Notes under the pieces: generated by a model
Databases searched by the model: none
The model's input: only the letters and a program-made list of their open reading frames with translations
What the model was told of the DNA's origin: nothing
Shown here: in pieces, positions 644 through 6,867 of the stretch
Position numbering within the stretch: the first letter of the stretch is position 1
Layout: each line of letters opens with the position of its first letter
Position numbers and translations under genes: made by a program
IMG/VR virus record: IMGVR_UViG_2690316345_000004
DNA: 6,867 nucleotides
From: a virus
Taxonomy: Duplodnaviria > Heunggongvirae > Uroviricota > Caudoviricetes
Direction: 5' to 3' (one strand)

Positions 644-1072
644 ATGCTAAAAACTAGGCTTATCACTGATTACATCAATTCATTAGTAGGTCAGGAGTTC
701 GTTCAAGGCGAGAATGATTGCAATTTAATTGCATGTAAGATCATCGATATTCTCGCTGGCACTGACCTATATAATTCTCTTTATAAAAAATATTCAACGA
801 AAGAAGAAGGCTTGAAAGTCTGTAAAGAACTTAGTGGATATACCAATATCCTCCAGCCTATCAAAGAACATTTTAAATTAGTTACTGATGATTTACAGGA
901 CGGCGACCTATTGATCCGCGATCACAAATTAGGAAACCGTAAGTATTACTCCGTGACTCCTTATTATTCCGGCTATGGACTCGTTACCGAAGATGGAATC
1001 TGGACGACCAAGCCGATTTACGAAATTGATTATAACGATGCTTATCGCTTTGGGGGTGATTTATGGGCGTAG
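644..1072 (+). CDS. putative tail assembly protein with NlpC/P60-like Cys...His arrangement (lambda gpK-like C-terminal domain)
   Basis: ATG 644 is preceded by GGAGGT (631-636) at 7-nt spacing. The ORF-track start at TTG 401 would overlap the previous gene by about 200 nt and is rejected. The product has a Cys in a GENDCNLIAC context and a downstream GDLLIRDH segment, reminiscent of NlpC/P60 catalytic Cys/His motifs. Stop TAG 1070-1072 overlaps the next start (ATGGGCGTAG). Confidence 0.6.
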   Translation: MLKTRLITDYINSLVGQEFVQGENDCNLIACKIIDILAGTDLYNSLYKKYSTKEEGLKVCKELSGYTNILQPIKEHFKLVTDDLQDGDLLIRDHKLGNRKYYSVTPYYSGYGLVTEDGIWTTKPIYEIDYNDAYRFGGDLWA

Positions 1073-4000
1073 AAGTATTGGTCGGCGCGGTTATTGCTGG
1101 TGCGTCGGCTGGGATGGCTGCTGCTTCCGTGGCGGCAATTTCAACATTAGCGGCTGTTGCTATCGGTATTGGTGCTGGTGCATTGTCTTTGATTGCTTCC
1201 ACTGTAGGCGCACCGAAAACACCGAAGGTACAAAGCCCAGATAACGCGGTGACATTAGGAACATCAAACGATCCGAAAGCGGTGATACCAGTTATTTTCG
1301 GTGTTACTCGCACTGGTACAAACTGTGTTTACAAAGCAATTTCTAAGAAAGAAAACAATAAGTTAGTGCAAGTATTTTCTGTAGCCGAGGGTGAAATCGA
1401 CCATTACAAAGCACTCTTTATTGATAATAAAAATGTTCTTGTTGGTAAGAACATGACGATCCGTGATGGTATTCTCGATAAGGGCAACATTAAAGAAGAA
1501 TACCGTAAAGTGTTAGAAGTCGAGTTCCGCACGGGTAAGAATCCTAACACCGCATTGTCACTGGCAAAAACTCATTTAGGCTCAGACTGGACCGATGCTT
1601 ACAAGGGTAACGGCATTGCAACCATGTGTATTGTGTTACGTCGTGATGACAAATCTCTTGCTGCTGGTGTTGATATTCTCCAGCCAAATAGCCAGGTAGC
1701 AGTAGACGTTTGCGGCCTTAAAATCCGTAACCTTGAAACCAATGCTATTGAGGCTAGCACCAACGGCGTGGACCAGATTTTCCACTACCTAACAAATGAA
1801 AAATATGGTCTTAGTGTACCAATTGAAAACATCAACGTTGATTCATTCCTGAAAGTACGTTCTCAAGTTCGCCAGATGAATTTGCACTCTAACGGTGCAT
1901 GTGATCCGAACGCCAGCTTTAAAGAGAACTTGACCGGATTGATGCAGACTTTCGGCGGGGTGATGTTTGAATCCTTTGGACGTATTACTCTGAAACTGGA
2001 TGCTCCTGATATTGTTAAGCATACCTTCAATGAAGACAATATCATGATGGGTAAAGTTAACCTGAAAACAGGTGGCACTAACGGTTATTTCAATACCATT
2101 AACGCAATCTATCAGGAACCATCAATCGACTATTCAGAGCAAATGCTACGTTATCCGGCTGATGCTGAAAATGATGCTACTATCCGTCAAGATGGGCGCA
2201 TTATTGCTAAAGACGTAGAATATCGCTTTGTTAAAGATGAAAACCAGATTGACAAATTAGCGAGCATTGAACGAAATAAATCTCGTATTACTCAGGTTAT
2301 CAACTTCACTACTACCGATGCATTCAGCGCGGAAGTCTGGGACGTTATCAGCGTTACCCACGATGAATTGAAACTGAATAATTCACTTTGGCGTATTATC
2401 TCTATTGAGCGTAGCATTGATTCTGGTATTGCTGGTATTTTGTCTATCACCGCCACAGAATATAATTCTCAGATTTACACAGATCTGGATTATGCGGCTA
2501 AACCGGACAATAGACCAAGTGGTTTACCGGATTCAATGACAGTACAGAAGCCTACTAATTTCAGAATTAAGGCAACTGGCGAGACGATTTACGGTAAAAA
2601 TGTTACTTTGACATGGGATGCACCGGAAGATTTTAACCGCTACGGCTTCCAGATTGATTACCGTGTAAGCGGATCACCTAACTGGATTAAGCTCGGTCAG
2701 ACTTCACAGCAAATTTTCAATGTCAATGCACTGGCTAAAGATCGCTCCTACGATTACCGAGTTTGTGCTTTCGGTATCATCGCGCGATCCGATTGGGTAG
2801 AACTGATTAACCAGAATCCGACTGTTACCTATGAATTGCCGACTCCGGTTATTCGAATCAAAAATCAGGGTAGCACGCCAGGAACTTTCGAAGGTAATGA
2901 TCTGATTATCGAATGGGATAACCAGCAAGGCTTAGATGTTGAGATCAACGGTGAAACTAACAAGTTTAGTGACCTGTTTGAAGCATACATTATCAAGGTG
3001 ACTAACAAGGCTGGTAAGTCTATTCAGTACCGTACCCGCGATCCTGAATCATGGACTTATACGCTTGATATGAACCAGTTTAACGGCCTTTCGCGTCAAC
3101 TGACGGTAGAAGTATCAGCTAAGGGATATAACAACTCAGAGAGCGCCCCAGCGCGTTTAGTGGCTATCAACCCACAACATAAGCCAATGAAAGGTTTTAG
3201 TGCGCGTGGTGGCTTTAATACTGCGTTTGTTAGCTGGGCGGATGACGTAGAACATGACTATGCAGGGTCAATCATCCAGTATGCAACCGACAACACTTTC
3301 TCAGATGCAAGGGCAGTAAGCACGAATAGTGTTAGCCATACTTCCTTTGATATTGCTGACGGTGATTATTATATCCGTGGTGCTCACTACGATATTTTCG
3401 GTATGGATGATGCTGTTTGGTCTGAACCGTATTTCATGCAAATGAAATCTACCATTAGCTGGGACGATCAGGACAAAGAAGCACTGGAAGACCTGATTGG
3501 TTTACAAGATCGCTTAGATGAAACCATCGCTGATGCTATTGCTCAAGCTGGCGCTAATGCCGATGCTAAAATTGATGCAATGCATAAGCAAATCACTACC
3601 GAGACGGGTAAAACTGTTCAAGCCTCAGCCGATACCTTAAAGAGTCTGATTGCTTCTGGTGATAAGGCAAGTTCAACTAAGATTGATCAGGTTAAAGCTG
3701 AACTGAAAGGCGATATCACCAAAGAAGTTAGCGCATCTGCTACTACCCTGAAACAAGCAATTGCAACCAGTGAGGCAGCAAGCGCAAGTAAGATTGACCA
3801 AGTTCGGGTAGAAATGGATGGCAAGATTGCTGGTGTGAATCAGGAAGCAGATGTAAAAATCGATGCTTTGAAAGGAACCATTAACAGCAAATACAATCTG
3901 GCAGTTAATGCAGATGGTCGCGTGGCTGGCATTCACATGAGCGCAACCAACGATCCGGCACAACCGACTAAAATCATCTTTACGGCTGATAAAATTGCTG

Positions 4001-4815
4001 TAGCTCCGCAGAACGGGACCGATGTTTGCCCGTTTGGTATCGAAGGTAACAAGGTTTATCTCGATAATGCGATGATTCGTAATGCTGCAATTGGCACAGC
4101 CCAGATTAATGATGCGGCAATTACTACCGCTAAGATCGGAAATGCTGCAATTAACAGCGCGAAGATTCAGGACGGGGCGATCACCAATGCGAAGATCGTA
4201 AACGGCGCAATTGATAATGCTAAAATTGGTAACTATATCCAGTCTTCAAACTGGAACGGATCTACCGGATGGCATATCAACAAGAACGGGTCCGCTACGT
4301 TCATGAACGCTACCGTTAAAGGTAATATCACGGCTGATTCTGGTACTCTGAACAACGTCACGATTAACTCTAGCTGTGTTATTAAGGGTATGCTTGAAGC
4401 TACTCAGGTTAAGGGTGATTTCGTTAAGGTGATTGGTAAGAAATTCCCTCATCGTCAACAAAACTGGCCTGATGGCACTGTTACGGTAAGGGTGGAAGAT
4501 GATCATAAGTTTGATCGCCAAATTGTGATTCCAGCTATTCACCATAACGGGTCTGTTCGTCGTGGCGAAAGTAGTGATCATTGGGACACTTGCCGATTAA
4601 TCGTTAAGAAAAATGGCTCTGTTCTATATGATCGCACGGCTACTTCTGGCAGCATGTACACAGGCGTTATTGACATGCCAGCGGGTAAAGGTGCTGTAAC
4701 GTTAACATTCCAAGTTATTTGTGATGGTGTTAACAACTATAACCCAAGTGCATATATCAGCGATCTAACAGTAATGGTAACTAAAAAAGCCACTACTGGT
4801 ATTACTGTTTCTTAA
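1063..4815 (+). CDS. central tail fiber / host specificity protein, lambda gpJ-like, with a gpI-like N-terminal module
   Basis: 1250-codon ORF with ATG 1063 preceded by GGGGGTGA (1052-1059). The C-terminal ~160 aa (EDDHKFDRQIVIP, IDMPAGKGAVTLTF, DLTVMVTKKATTGITVS) closely resemble the recalled C-terminal receptor-binding region of lambda J (TDDHPFDRQIVV, VDMPAGRGNVILTF, DVQVMVIKKQALGISVV). The middle holds FN3-like beta-sandwich segments and an Ala/Lys/Asp-rich coiled-coil stretch. The first ~95 aa are a Gly/Ala-rich hydrophobic segment followed by APKTPKV...VIPVIFGVTRTG, resembling the C-terminal half of lambda gpI. Confidence 0.92.
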   Translation: MGVEVLVGAVIAGASAGMAAASVAAISTLAAVAIGIGAGALSLIASTVGAPKTPKVQSPDNAVTLGTSNDPKAVIPVIFGVTRTGTNCVYKAISKKENNKLVQVFSVAEGEIDHYKALFIDNKNVLVGKNMTIRDGILDKGNIKEEYRKVLEVEFRTGKNPNTALSLAKTHLGSDWTDAYKGNGIATMCIVLRRDDKSLAAGVDILQPNSQVAVDVCGLKIRNLETNAIEASTNGVDQIFHYLTNEKYGLSVPIENINVDSFLKVRSQVRQMNLHSNGACDPNASFKENLTGLMQTFGGVMFESFGRITLKLDAPDIVKHTFNEDNIMMGKVNLKTGGTNGYFNTINAIYQEPSIDYSEQMLRYPADAENDATIRQDGRIIAKDVEYRFVKDENQIDKLASIERNKSRITQVINFTTTDAFSAEVWDVISVTHDELKLNNSLWRIISIERSIDSGIAGILSITATEYNSQIYTDLDYAAKPDNRPSGLPDSMTVQKPTNFRIKATGETIYGKNVTLTWDAPEDFNRYGFQIDYRVSGSPNWIKLGQTSQQIFNVNALAKDRSYDYRVCAFGIIARSDWVELINQNPTVTYELPTPVIRIKNQGSTPGTFEGNDLIIEWDNQQGLDVEINGETNKFSDLFEAYIIKVTNKAGKSIQYRTRDPESWTYTLDMNQFNGLSRQLTVEVSAKGYNNSESAPARLVAINPQHKPMKGFSARGGFNTAFVSWADDVEHDYAGSIIQYATDNTFSDARAVSTNSVSHTSFDIADGDYYIRGAHYDIFGMDDAVWSEPYFMQMKSTISWDDQDKEALEDLIGLQDRLDETIADAIAQAGANADAKIDAMHKQITTETGKTVQASADTLKSLIASGDKASSTKIDQVKAELKGDITKEVSASATTLKQAIATSEAASASKIDQVRVEMDGKIAGVNQEADVKIDALKGTINSKYNLAVNADGRVAGIHMSATNDPAQPTKIIFTADKIAVAPQNGTDVCPFGIEGNKVYLDNAMIRNAAIGTAQINDAAITTAKIGNAAINSAKIQDGAITNAKIVNGAIDNAKIGNYIQSSNWNGSTGWHINKNGSATFMNATVKGNITADSGTLNNVTINSSCVIKGMLEATQVKGDFVKVIGKKFPHRQQNWPDGTVTVRVEDDHKFDRQIVIPAIHHNGSVRRGESSDHWDTCRLIVKKNGSVLYDRTATSGSMYTGVIDMPAGKGAVTLTFQVICDGVNNYNPSAYISDLTVMVTKKATTGITVS
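4078..4227 (+). repeat. five tandem 30-nt (10-codon) repeats inside the J-like CDS
   Basis: Directly visible: RNAAIGTAQI / NDAAITTAKI / GNAAINSAKI / QDGAITNAKI / VNGAIDNAKI, each encoded by a 30-nt unit (e.g. aatgctgcaatt...aagat[ct]) in head-to-tail register. Confidence 0.85.
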
Positions 4816-4833
4816 AATTTAATTTTAATAATT

Positions 4834-4875
4834 AATCCCGCTTAATTCTTTTGGGTTAGGCGGGATTATTTTTAT
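4834..4875 (+). terminator. putative rho-independent terminator after the tail-fiber gene
   Basis: Inverted repeat aatcccgctt (4834-4843) / aggcgggatt (4858-4867), a 10-bp stem with one G-U pair and a 14-nt loop, followed by ATTTTTAT (4868-4875). It lies 19 nt after the J stop. Confidence 0.55.
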
Positions 4876-4920
4876 CTAAATAATTCTGCCATTAAACTAT
4901 ATAAAAATATCGGGGGCGTA

Positions 4921-5199
4921 ATGACTGAAATTATATATGGCGGTATCGGTGTTATCGCCTTAATTTGTGGTGGATTATGGAGGCTTCACCGAAATCAATT
5001 AGCCACAGAAAATAGATTGTCGAAATTAGAATCCAGCGACGCATTGTTAAACCAGAAGTTTGAGACGATGCAGAATAACCATACTCAGATTGCTGAACGT
5101 GTTTACCAAATGGAACAAACACTACACGGTATAGAGAAGAAAGTGGTTGCGATGGACGCCAAATTTGACCAAGTTCTCGACATACTCAAACAAAAATAA
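4921..5199 (+). CDS. hypothetical membrane-anchored coiled-coil protein (92 aa)
   Basis: ATG 4921 preceded by GGGGG (4912-4916). One N-terminal hydrophobic segment (IIYGGIGVIALICGGLW), a basic flank (RLHRNQ), then a heptad-like helical region. Ends with three in-frame stops TAATAATAA (5197-5205). Confidence 0.7.
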   Translation: MTEIIYGGIGVIALICGGLWRLHRNQLATENRLSKLESSDALLNQKFETMQNNHTQIAERVYQMEQTLHGIEKKVVAMDAKFDQVLDILKQK

Positions 5200-5217
5200 T
5201 AATAAAGGGGTGAATAT

Positions 5218-5388
5218 ATGAAGAATAAACTTAAGAAATATTTTGGTTATCTCTTGATTGTCGCCCTCACTTATAACGTAGCAATTAGACCTCTGCTTAC
5301 GTCCTTTGGGCTTGAACTCCCGGCTATGACCGTGGATGAACAATTGCTCAGGACACTGGCGGGGGTCTTTTCGTTATTAGGGGGCTAA
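5218..5388 (+). CDS. hypothetical small hydrophobic protein (56 aa), absent from the supplied ORF track
   Basis: ATG 5218 preceded by AAAGGGG (5205-5211). Translation: MKNKLKKYFGYLLIVALTYNVAIRPLLTSFGLELPAMTVDEQLLRTLAGVFSLLGG. Lys-rich N-terminus followed by a hydrophobic stretch. Stop TAA 5386-5388 lies 1 nt before the next ATG (TAACATG), indicating translational coupling; it fills the gap between two well-supported genes. Confidence 0.5.
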   Translation: MKNKLKKYFGYLLIVALTYNVAIRPLLTSFGLELPAMTVDEQLLRTLAGVFSLLGG

Positions 5389-5389
5389 C

Positions 5390-5995
5390 ATGGCTAATCC
5401 AATAATCACATCCAATATTGATAAAGTAAAAAAAGATATCAAGAGTTGGAAACAGAAAGCTAGTAATAGCTTTCATAGGGATTTGGGTTTAGCGGTCATA
5501 GATGAGCGGGTAAAGTTGCAGAAGAAAGTCAATTCAAGGATAGATCGACCGACCAAGTTCACACAGAAAGCGGTCAATTCATACAACCGGATACGCTCAA
5601 GCGGTAAAACGTCTTACCATAGTGTTTTCATCATGAAGAATCAGGAAAAATACTTAAAATATTACTTTGAAGGTGGTAATAATATCGAGAAATTTGTTCC
5701 TGTAACTGATGACCGAACTAACCAGTTTGGTAACATTCCACAACTCAGAAACGGTAAGAAAATAGGGAAGTATGTAACCACAAAATCTAAGACTGGTAAA
5801 ATACTGCTTCTCGATCCATCCGTTAAAGCCGACATGAACAACAAGAAAAAGCTAGGGAAGCGACTTGTTGCAGTGTTGAAGAAAACAGACCGTAGTAACA
5901 TCATGGGTAGTTGGAAAGATAATGAGAAAACGATGAAGAAGAATATCCAGAAGAAGATGAAAAAGCACTTCATGGGTAAAATCAACTTCGTTTAA
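5390..5995 (+). CDS. hypothetical lysine-rich basic protein (201 aa)
   Basis: ATG 5390 preceded by AGGGGG (5378-5383). Very Lys-rich, especially at the C-terminus (KKNIQKKMKKHFMGKINFV), with no obvious hydrophobic segment. The antisense ORF 5662-5985 is a low-complexity mirror of the Lys codons and is rejected. Confidence 0.75.
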   Translation: MANPIITSNIDKVKKDIKSWKQKASNSFHRDLGLAVIDERVKLQKKVNSRIDRPTKFTQKAVNSYNRIRSSGKTSYHSVFIMKNQEKYLKYYFEGGNNIEKFVPVTDDRTNQFGNIPQLRNGKKIGKYVTTKSKTGKILLLDPSVKADMNNKKKLGKRLVAVLKKTDRSNIMGSWKDNEKTMKKNIQKKMKKHFMGKINFV

Positions 5996-6003
5996 TCCAT
6001 AAA

Positions 6004-6029
6004 TACCCTCATAGAATCTTATGGGGGTA
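6004..6029 (+). promoter_or_regulatory. hairpin sequestering the Shine-Dalgarno of the 6034 gene
   Basis: taccctcata (6004-6013) pairs with tatgggggta (6020-6029): a 10-bp stem with one G-U pair and a 6-nt loop. The GGGGG at 6023-6027 is the RBS for ATG 6034. No T-tract follows, so it is not a terminator. Confidence 0.35.
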
Positions 6030-6033
6030 TAAC

Positions 6034-6381
6034 ATGGCTAAAAATATTTTCACTGAATTTCCTACTTATCCGGTCGACCAGCTTTCCGGTATTTTTATCA
6101 ATGGCATTAGCCCTGAATCAATGACACTTGATTACGAGGCGAAGAGAGTAAAGCATAAACAATTCAAGCAAATGATCCGCGATGATGGTAACGGGTTAGT
6201 GTTTTGTGTTGCGACACTCGCTAAACGTCCTAAATACCGCTTCCGTGTAGGGCAGGAGATTGATGTAGTTAACCCTTACAACTTCAATTGTATTGGTGAT
6301 GCACGAGCGGTATGCATAGGCACAGCACCTTATTACATTAAGGGACTCAGATTTATTGGGTATCTTATGCAATACATCTAA
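6034..6381 (+). CDS. hypothetical protein (115 aa)
   Basis: ATG 6034 with GGGGG 7 nt upstream. Ends TAA 6379-6381, immediately followed by the RBS of the next gene. No family recognised from sequence. Confidence 0.7.
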   Translation: MAKNIFTEFPTYPVDQLSGIFINGISPESMTLDYEAKRVKHKQFKQMIRDDGNGLVFCVATLAKRPKYRFRVGQEIDVVNPYNFNCIGDARAVCIGTAPYYIKGLRFIGYLMQYI

Positions 6382-6391
6382 AGGGGGTAAT

Positions 6392-6745
6392 ATGTTAAGC
6401 AAGCATTTTTCTCGCAAGGAATTTAAATGTAAATGCGGAAAATGTGATTATGATACTATCGACGCTGAACTGCTGGTAATTCTTGAGGATGTACGCGAAC
6501 ACTTCGGGAAACCAGTAATTATTAACAGCGGGAACCGTTGTCCGACTCATAATAAGAATGTAGGCGGTGCAACCAATAGCTACCATGTTCGAGGCCGTGC
6601 GGTTGATATTGTAGTGAAAGGCGTCTCGCCTGATATTGTCCATGCTTATCTTGATGGGAAATATCCTACCAAGTATGGCTTAGGAAAGTATAAAACCTTC
6701 ACGCACATTGATAGTCGTTCAACGAAATCACGCTGGCATGGATAA
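6392..6745 (+). CDS. peptidase M15 family zinc metallopeptidase (Peptidase_M15_3 / YcbK-like fold), putative endolysin
   Basis: ATG 6392 preceded by AGGGGG (6382-6387); the TTG 6356 start in the ORF track is rejected. Motifs INSGNRCPTHNKNVGGATNSYHVRGRAVD and FTHID match the His-x6-Asp ... His zinc-binding signature of M15 peptidases. No signal peptide or SAR-like N-terminus. Confidence 0.85.
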   Translation: MLSKHFSRKEFKCKCGKCDYDTIDAELLVILEDVREHFGKPVIINSGNRCPTHNKNVGGATNSYHVRGRAVDIVVKGVSPDIVHAYLDGKYPTKYGLGKYKTFTHIDSRSTKSRWHG

Positions 6746-6816
6746 AATTAAAGCGCCTCTAGTGGGTAATGCCGATCAGTTAAGGATCAGTTGACCGATC
6801 CAGTGGCTGTGTAAGA

Positions 6817-6850
6817 ATCCGGAAACGCTCACTTGTTTCCGGATTTTTTT
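6817..6850 (+). terminator. rho-independent terminator
   Basis: Perfect 10-bp inverted repeat atccggaaac (6817-6826) / gtttccggat (6835-6844) with an 8-nt loop, followed by a run of seven T (6844-6850). Confidence 0.7.
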
Positions 6851-6867
6851 ATGCACATTGGACAGGC

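Follow-up and report, generated by a model that had tools for sequence, protein, structure and literature searches.

A four-gene block behind the tail tip gene of an enterobacterial prophage remnant probably interleaves lysis genes with a displaced tail completion gene

We analyzed a 6,867-nucleotide stretch of viral DNA, IMG/VR record IMGVR_UViG_2690316345_000004 (Caudoviricetes); the term window refers to this whole stretch at its full length. The subject of this report is a block of four small genes, genes 1 to 4, which lie at positions 4921 to 6381 between a J-like tail tip gene and an endolysin gene. A preliminary description, made from the nucleotide sequence alone, had delimited four packed, co-directional genes with GGGG(G) Shine-Dalgarno sequences between a terminator and the endolysin gene, and its coordinates were exact. 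It had described the products as a membrane-anchored coiled-coil protein, a hydrophobic peptide, a Lys-rich protein and a soluble protein, and this was borne out by hydropathy and composition. The block and its immediate borders comprise the following features (lengths in amino acids, aa).

4833 to 4878, + strand: hairpin resembling an intrinsic terminator, at 4833 to 4868, its 16-bp stem trailed by a T-run, in the interval from J to gene 1.
4921 to 5199, + strand: gene 1, 92 aa, from its architecture a putative accessory of lysis, either releasin/Lcc6-like or partner to a holin.
5218 to 5388, + strand: gene 2, 56 aa, small membrane protein of family phrog_2024 and, through the phrog_2024 link, probable holin.
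5390 to 5995, + strand: gene 3, 201 aa, very probably a tail completion protein of the lambda gpZ/HK97 gp10 (Neck1) type, subfamily phrog_1924, from profile links and a structural model.
6034 to 6381, + strand: gene 4, 115 aa, soluble, conserved partner directly 3' of gene 3, from synteny.
6392 to 6745, + strand: endolysin, 117 aa, M15 zinc peptidase, last gene of the operon (Pfam Peptidase_M15_3, 3.2e-28; PHROG endolysin, 3.2e-45).

In the list of open reading frames (ORFs), genes 1 to 4 are all on the positive strand, with the post-J hairpin on one side and the M15 endolysin gene on the other. Spacers of 18, 1 and 38 nt separate genes 1 and 2, genes 2 and 3, and genes 3 and 4, respectively, and another 10 nt separate gene 4 from the endolysin gene. 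A GGGG or GGGGG Shine-Dalgarno sequence lies 6 to 9 nt 5' of each of the four starts. When compared with the Escherichia coli and Salmonella orthologues, genes 1 to 4 had ratios of nonsynonymous to synonymous substitution rates (dN/dS) of 0.06 to 0.29 (0.10 for gene 1 and 0.16 for gene 2), similar to the 0.09 of the endolysin gene. Thus, genes 1 to 4 are real genes under purifying selection.

We propose that genes 1 to 4 and the endolysin gene make up the conserved 3'-terminal stretch of the late operon, for virion and lysis proteins, of a temperate siphovirus lineage of Enterobacterales, and that they serve two ordinary functions rather than forming one system. We give this reading a probability of roughly 0.65. 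Gene 3 would encode a tail completion protein and gene 4 its fixed partner, both moved away from the usual position of neck genes. The soluble M15 endolysin would need a hole in the inner membrane, for which gene 2, a minimal relative of the GTA-type holins, would be the most likely source, and gene 1 would most likely modulate or assist holin action or lysis timing. In this reading the functions are known ones and their arrangement is unusual, with a displaced tail completion gene and its partner set within a lysis cassette; the block is not a new system.

The same four families were found behind J in all relatives examined, with identity falling to about 30%. Besides divergent prophages of E. 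coli, Shigella and Salmonella, these relatives comprised Pantoea sp. MBLJ3, Escherichia phage DCP80 and three further lineages. The co-occurrence of the genes as a block, which the preliminary description had proposed to look for, was thus confirmed, phage DCP80 included. The pair of genes 3 and 4 was invariant across lineages, often overlapping by 4 nt, and the membrane-protein genes and the endolysin gene shifted around it. The alternative order in loci L021 and L023 was a gene 1-like gene, endolysin, a homing endonuclease, gene 3-like and gene 4-like genes and a long gene 2-like gene. The gene 1 orthologue there adjoins the endolysin gene; in L022 to L024, the gene call for the endolysin is on the opposite strand.

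The endolysin slot was filled by three different families among the relatives: M15_3, M15_4 and GH24-type Phage_lysozyme. One enterobacterial lineage carrying the block has the M15_4 endolysin, and a very common lineage of E. coli, Serratia and Yersinia has the GH24-type lysozyme. Pantoea sp. MBLJ3 (L007, 10884 to 13883) has the block followed by genes for a tail assembly chaperone (G/T-like) and tape-measure-like proteins instead of an endolysin; there, the nearest lysin-like gene (Amidase_2) is about 4.5 kb off and does not adjoin the block. The Pantoea tail gene order at this locus is rearranged or duplicated.

The post-J hairpin is kept in relatives from both E. coli and Salmonella, in the latter through a compensatory change (AATCCCGC..GCGGGATT to AAACCCGC..GCGGGTTT). 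At the equivalent place behind J, Pantoea carries another hairpin, which is GC-rich and has a tetraloop. These observations suggest regulated read-through, or formation of a transcript end, ahead of the block.

The preliminary description had read the block as an accessory module, acquired separately and placed after the receptor-binding protein gene like the moron genes cor, llp and lom, with superinfection exclusion or anti-defence among its possible roles. The position would be right for such a module, behind a terminator and after a J-like receptor-binding gene; two of the four products are membrane proteins, and genes 1 and 4 have no assigned function. The A/T-richness cited for separate acquisition was real and small, with a G+C content of 39.0% in the block and 43.5% in J. 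The separate acquisition itself, however, was not borne out. The G+C content of third codon positions (GC3) was 0.40 to 0.49 in the four genes as opposed to 0.40 in J, and was thus not lower; therefore, the lower G+C of the block reflects its Lys-rich composition (Lys codons) and not a foreign origin. Because synteny is conserved down to about 30% identity, in an isolated phage as well as in prophages, and GC3 is not below that of J, we regard the block as core late genes and not as recently acquired morons. Exclusion or anti-defence fared no better. None of the four proteins matched the PADLOC defence-system models at E <= 0.1, none carries a cleavable signal or lipobox of the Cor/Llp/Lom type, and no convincing promoter for expression in a lysogen was found 3' of the post-J hairpin. 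Gene 3, moreover, belongs to a family of structural proteins, as set out below. We therefore consider a moron module highly improbable.

Direct scans of genes 1 to 4 against Pfam and PHROG gave noise-level matches only, with none above threshold, and the statement that the genes have no recognizable family was fair for such scans. Megablast of the block against phage genomes gave no match. For gene 3, links were obtained through its relatives. A word-index search returned only 10 of them. A profile built from those 10 and run against 1.84 billion representatives found 330 relatives at E <= 1e-3, nearly all about 190 to 200 aa long. Of 66 aligned family members, 48 matched phrog_1924 'minor tail protein' (best 3.8e-52), 22 matched phrog_27 'tail completion or Neck1 protein' (best 3.4e-11), and 13 matched Pfam PF06763, Minor_tail_Z (best 4.6e-6). 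Lambda gpZ matched family members at 1.8e-5 and 9.5e-5 (E values within a set of 178 sequences).

The predicted structure pointed the same way. The AlphaFold2 (AF2) model of gene 3, with a predicted local distance difference test score (pLDDT) of 90.7, consists of an N-terminal helix at residues 10 to 50 (41 residues), a central beta domain and a C-terminal helix at residues 175 to 200 (26 residues). Its matches in BFVD included 'tail component' and 'HK97-gp10 putative tail-component' (best 8.7e-8). The published fold of the tail completion family comprises two long helices and a small sheet, with an extra beta domain in gpZ (PMC11784142; PMC11661146), and the model agrees with it.

Three results weigh against this assignment. 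The gene 3 of the window, searched alone, had its best match to phrog_1924 at 0.0027 and no above-threshold Pfam or PHROG match of its own. The hhalign comparison of the family alignment with the single lambda gpZ sequence was weak (probability 7%). A Foldseek search of the model against the PDB found no match, though this would be expected if hardly any family member had been solved. The family profile also found no match among PDB sequences. As published, no structure of the tail completion family had been solved before that of 80alpha gp51, which fits the empty PDB searches. With the links and the model taken together, we are fairly confident in placing the predicted gene 3 product in the gpZ/Neck1 tail completion family. 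Such homology to an ordinary structural protein is what the preliminary description had named as refuting an undescribed system, and we have dropped that proposal.

Gene 3 does not occupy the neck position, which lies between the head-closure and tail-terminator genes, 5' of the tube gene. In an intact relative of the prophage, the interval between the capsid and tube genes contains only two ORFs, of 96 and 140 aa. A tail completion protein would thus otherwise be missing from the neck module. A search for a tail terminator among these two neck ORFs identified none.

Members of the phrog_1924 family were also seen outside the neck in other phages. Pseudomonas phage Ostro has the order holin, endolysin, i-spanin, phrog_1924 protein and TerS (L028, 3498 to 4241). 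The genome of RcRhea ends with the phrog_1924 gene (L029, 5001 to 5600), and in Ralstonia phages that gene lies directly 5' of the terminase gene (L002, 5968 to 6576). Two distant gene 3 relatives, P0041 and P0072, were met only on contigs ~1 kb in length. The subfamily is often found at operon ends or beside lysis or terminase genes.

Seventeen close homologues of gene 4 were found, plus syntenic ones. The protein matched no Pfam or PHROG family above threshold, no PDB entry and no phage protein; tblastn against phages, with gene 4 and with one orthologue from L023, gave no match either. Its place behind the tail completion gene is the place of gpU behind gpZ, and this fixed place suggests a role in virion assembly. 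The model is less favourable. Built from a shallow alignment, it has low to moderate confidence, shows a small, mostly beta barrel and matches generic barrels. Gene 4 would probably encode another small virion or assembly protein. Two more definite identities were considered and rejected. As a tail terminator of the lambda gpU type, gene 4 lacked likeness to gpU, T5 p142 and SPP1 gp17 in sequence and fold, and the single lambda gpU sequence gave weak hhalign results with the family alignments. As a PilZ domain, it lacked the RxxxR and D/NxSxxG motifs for binding of cyclic di-GMP.

The endolysin has a hydrophilic N-terminus (MLSKHFSRKEFKCK); the maximum hydropathy of the protein is 0.83, and it is without a signal or signal-anchor-release (SAR) segment. 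As a soluble M15 peptidase, it would therefore depend on an opening in the inner membrane. When the window and the whole prophage were scanned in six frames for lipoboxes, no plausible spanin or lipobox ORF came up in or near the block. The lysis set is thus incomplete by the canonical scheme. Gene 2 and its orthologues contain no Cys.

The lack of a detectable spanin can also be turned into an argument that the whole block is a lysis cassette, in which genes 3 and 4 would encode novel lysis factors (a spanin substitute, an outer-membrane disruptor or timing regulators) and not virion proteins. The LambdaSo preprint mentions phages that lack spanins and have cationic disruptor peptides, and gene 3 is strongly basic, with 48 K and R among its 201 residues and an isoelectric point (pI) of 10.4. 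Genes like it occur in or beside the lysis cassettes of other phages. The block was also considered always to end in or contain an endolysin gene, but in Pantoea it is the tail chaperone and tape-measure genes that follow it. Genes 3 and 4 both encode proteins without a signal sequence or transmembrane helix, so that the outer membrane would be out of their reach until lysis, and the gene 3 family is tied by profile and fold to gpZ and HK97 gp10. We find a pure lysis cassette quite improbable.

Gene 2 encodes a hydrophobic protein (pI 9.6) with one clear helix at residues ~10 to 30 and a short C-terminal hydrophobic one. A profile search found 88 relatives, in forms of 56 to 57 aa and of ~96 aa, and in the alignment the short forms fall on the C-terminal membrane core of the long forms. 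Matches to phrog_2024, a family of unknown function, were obtained at 0.0054 for the gene 2 of the window, 5.8e-5 for the Pantoea gene, 4e-4 for that of DCP80 and 7e-14 for the long form of L021. Pfam PF11351, GTA_holin_3TM, was matched by 13 of 33 scanned relatives (26 of the 33 being long forms), with a best value of 3.3e-5 and all scores below the gathering score. Two of the long relatives listed for PF11351 reached 21.1 to 21.7 bits (E 3e-4 to 5e-4) against a gathering score of 24.8 bits. The best match of a long form in a tblastn search of phages was annotated 'GTA-like holin'. A PF11351 protein of ICP1, TeaA, has been proposed as the ICP1 holin (10.1101/790493).

Since the soluble endolysin would need a holin, gene 2 is the best candidate for one, a call that we hold only slightly above even odds. 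The link to PF11351 is below the gathering score and runs through the longer relatives, and gene 2 has two membrane helices at most. The intact prophage also encodes a rival, a 92-aa protein with three transmembrane domains (3-TMD) directly after TerS (L015, 29551 to 29829). Both points tell against gene 2. A direct Pfam scan of the gene 2 of the window gave no match. With three strongly hydrophobic segments and a C-terminus that is charged, the 3-TMD protein is similar to class I holins and might itself be the holin. No homologue of the 3-TMD protein was present in the phage collection, and no counterpart was visible near the terminase genes of DCP80.

If the 3-TMD protein were the holin, the whole block could serve the virion and tail completion, with genes 1 and 2 encoding membrane-associated assembly or injection factors. 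Gene 2 is translationally coupled to gene 3, with a 1-nt spacer here and 0 to 8 nt in relatives, and the block lies directly behind J; a T5 protein annotated as a tail completion protein, p143, is located at the tail tip (PMC11784142). Such a reading has to contend with the resemblance of the gene 2 family to GTA-type holins, with the lack of a visible 3-TMD counterpart at the equivalent place of DCP80 and of a homologue in the phage collection, and with the separation of genes 1 and 2 from the gene 3-gene 4 pair in other lineages, where they lie beside the endolysin gene or at the operon end. We judge it improbable. A block devoted wholly to lysis or wholly to assembly is possible, and either is less economical than the combination of lysis genes with a tail completion pair.

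The gene 1 product has a three-residue N-terminus (MTE), a Gly-rich transmembrane helix at residues 4 to 22 (hydropathy 1.77), a basic RLHR junction and a heptad-rich helical or coiled-coil domain of ~68 aa. Orthologues with the same architecture lead the block in eight lineages; in all of them, a very short N-terminus precedes a transmembrane helix rich in Gly and Ala, and a basic junction leads on to a helical domain of 65 to 130 aa. The helical domain is predicted, solely by the positive-inside rule, to be cytoplasmic (N-out/C-in). The known proteins of this build include the releasin of phage Mu, gp25, which has 99 aa, an N-out/C-in topology, 4 periplasmic residues and a basic junction, and whose gene lies within 5 genes of the endolysin gene (PMC9239132). 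Lcc6 of LambdaSo is essential for lysis and encoded within a cluster of small ORFs at the prophage's distal end (LambdaSo preprint).

Gene 1 gave weak, non-specific matches to phrog_12015 (4e-5), an Rz-like spanin (0.036) and, for the Pantoea orthologue, DUF2730 (0.0034). A relationship to releasin through DUF2730 is undercut by the last of these, which was obtained for 1 of 8 orthologues only, at 17.9 bits against a cut-off of 24.9 and amid coiled-coil noise. The hhalign comparison of the gene 1 family with Mu gp25 (probability 9%) was not significant, and the partner of releasin is a SAR endolysin, whereas the endolysin here is soluble. With these points against it, a lysis accessory role for gene 1, suggested by analogy, is tentative and falls somewhat short of an even chance. 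Gene 1 was rejected as a spanin, as its Rz-like matches look like coiled-coil noise and no lipoprotein partner was found. The idea of a non-canonical lysis-control module in the preliminary description thus stays plausible for genes 1 and 2, given the releasin/Lcc6 architecture and the GTA_holin_3TM link.

A more far-reaching idea is that genes 1 and 2, perhaps joined by gene 4, form a non-canonical, spanin-less device for lysis control. A releasin/Lcc6-like gene 1 product would gate a 56-aa GTA-type holin for the soluble endolysin, and translational coupling to the tail completion gene would tie lysis competence to the last step of virion assembly. We consider this unlikely. A related possibility draws on T5 p143: like it, the displaced tail completion protein might work, together with its partner, at the tail tip instead of the neck.

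By its sequence matches, the window is what remains, between ends of IS1 and IS4, of a siphovirus prophage (~40 kb) of E. coli, Shigella and Salmonella. The remaining features of the window are as follows (IS, insertion sequence).

1 to 114, no strand assigned: terminal part of an IS1 element (positions 1 to 130 had thousands of IS1 matches).
115 to 597: tail-hub (DUF2163-like) gene, C-terminal part only, its 5' part cut off by IS1.
1063 to 4815, + strand: J-like tail tip or receptor-binding protein, 1250 aa (Pfam Phage_Tail_Tip, 1.9e-22, and Ig_GpJ_C, 3.3e-35; PHROG central tail fiber J).
6767 to 6867, no strand assigned: end of an IS4-family element (IS4 annotations beneath the matches to the window ends).

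Homology to the intact prophage begins at position 115, which corresponds to position 20001 of L006, within the gene at 19830 to 20483. IS1 took away the first ~57 codons of the tail-hub gene, so the prophage in the source genome is a defective remnant. At the other end, homology to intact prophages stops at position 6766, where the IS4-family element cut off the rest. The identical 201-aa gene 3 protein was present on 13 contigs, every one of them 5 to 10 kb long. The window corresponds to one of these, CYCA01000094.1 of GCA_001285045.1.

At least 54 complete genomes of E. coli carry intact relatives of the prophage. The one in E. coli RMDEC332 is a prophage of ~40 kb that sits in hicB. Its late operon begins with genes for the large terminase, a head-tail joining protein, the portal, the capsid, two small ORFs and tube-like proteins. 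A long fibre and a gp38-like adhesin, the G/T chaperones, the tape measure and the distal tail protein come next, and the hub, DUF6950, J, genes 1 to 4 and the endolysin gene complete the operon. Genes for a UvsW-like helicase and a serine recombinase lie beyond the endolysin gene on the other strand.

The prophage belongs to a temperate siphovirus lineage with T4-type recombination genes (UvsW-like helicase, UvsW-1 and UvsY) and a large serine recombinase (L006, 26663 to 31805; L009, 11837 to 17170). In other strains, its site is beside the csg/DUF1097 region. At the left end of the intact RMDEC332 prophage, a 190-aa lipoprotein with the lipobox LLSGC is encoded on the reverse strand (L015, 27813 to 28385); among possible moron or exclusion genes, it ranks above the four-gene block. 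Residues 1 to 50 of the J-like protein (window positions 1063 to 1215) form a long, Gly/Ala-rich hydrophobic stretch with a hydropathy of 2.07, which is unusual for a tip protein and recurs in the orthologues of Pantoea, DCP80, L019 and L021.

Between J and the block, some relatives carry two extra ORFs of 90 to 98 aa and 210 to 218 aa, one with DUF8377 (L019, 6607 to 7511; L023, 1892 to 2846). These are the truly variable post-J genes of the lineage. Genes of the homing-endonuclease type (Endonuclease VII-like with a SAP domain, SegE GIY-YIG and NUMOD3) were seen at points in or near the block that varied by lineage (L007, 9371 to 9853; L001, 5337 to 5804; L021, 6576 to 7001; L023, 3682 to 4131; L012, 4410 to 5183). 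The record of Escherichia phage DCP80 (PQ671644.1; L001 and L014) is 141 kb long, and its classification is T4-like Gaprivervirus. A siphovirus-type structural and lysis module with the block occupies the first ~30 kb, another part matches T4-like phages such as SP18, and the record may be a chimeric assembly.

The block carries no annotation other than 'hypothetical protein' in about 50 complete E. coli genomes and in prophages of Shigella, Salmonella, Pantoea, Yersinia and Serratia, and naming gene 3 as tail completion protein and gene 2 as probable holin would correct this. Neck genes can shift to the end of the late operon, among lysis genes, where a neck classification based on gene order would miss them. 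Gene 1 may be another member of the recently recognized class of membrane-tethered lysis accessories that includes releasin and Lcc6. Both gene 1 and gene 4 are small, conserved and tractable.

Compared with the canonical holin-endolysin-spanin cassette of phages of Gram-negative hosts, the block likewise clusters the endolysin with small membrane proteins at the end of the late operon. Unlike that cassette, it is interrupted by two non-membrane genes, genes 3 and 4, and holds neither an i-spanin/o-spanin pair nor a unimolecular spanin that could be found. The GTA_holin_3TM proteins (PF11351; RcGTA holin and ICP1 TeaA) resemble gene 2 in the C-terminal membrane core, to which phrog_2024 aligns with a conserved W/Y-N ... 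P ... G ... L-P motif. Gene 2 also shares one operon with the endolysin gene, ~1 kb 5' of the M15 gene, and the association recurs in relatives. The two differ in that gene 2 lacks the N-terminal amphipathic and hydrophilic half of its ~96-aa relatives and has at most two membrane segments, compared with three in the family.

Gene 1 shares with Mu gp25 releasin (DUF2730) and LambdaSo Lcc6 the few periplasmic residues, the single N-terminal transmembrane helix, the basic junction and a predicted cytoplasmic helical domain, of 40 to 70 aa in this class. It is similar to releasin in lying four genes 5' of the endolysin gene, its architecture corresponding and its topology being predicted, and to Lcc6 in lying within a small-ORF cluster beyond the tail genes. 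It differs from the Mu case in that the phage of the window is not Mu-like and gene 1 has no significant sequence similarity to gp25. Gene 3 differs from the lambda gpZ/HK97 gp10 type in its location after J among lysis genes, and not between head-closure and tail-terminator genes. It falls into the size class of lambda gpZ, HK97 gp10, SPP1 gp16.1 and 80alpha gp51 (201 aa for gene 3 and 192 aa for gpZ), and its predicted fold has the long N-terminal helix, inserted beta domain and long C-terminal helix of the gpZ/gp10 type.

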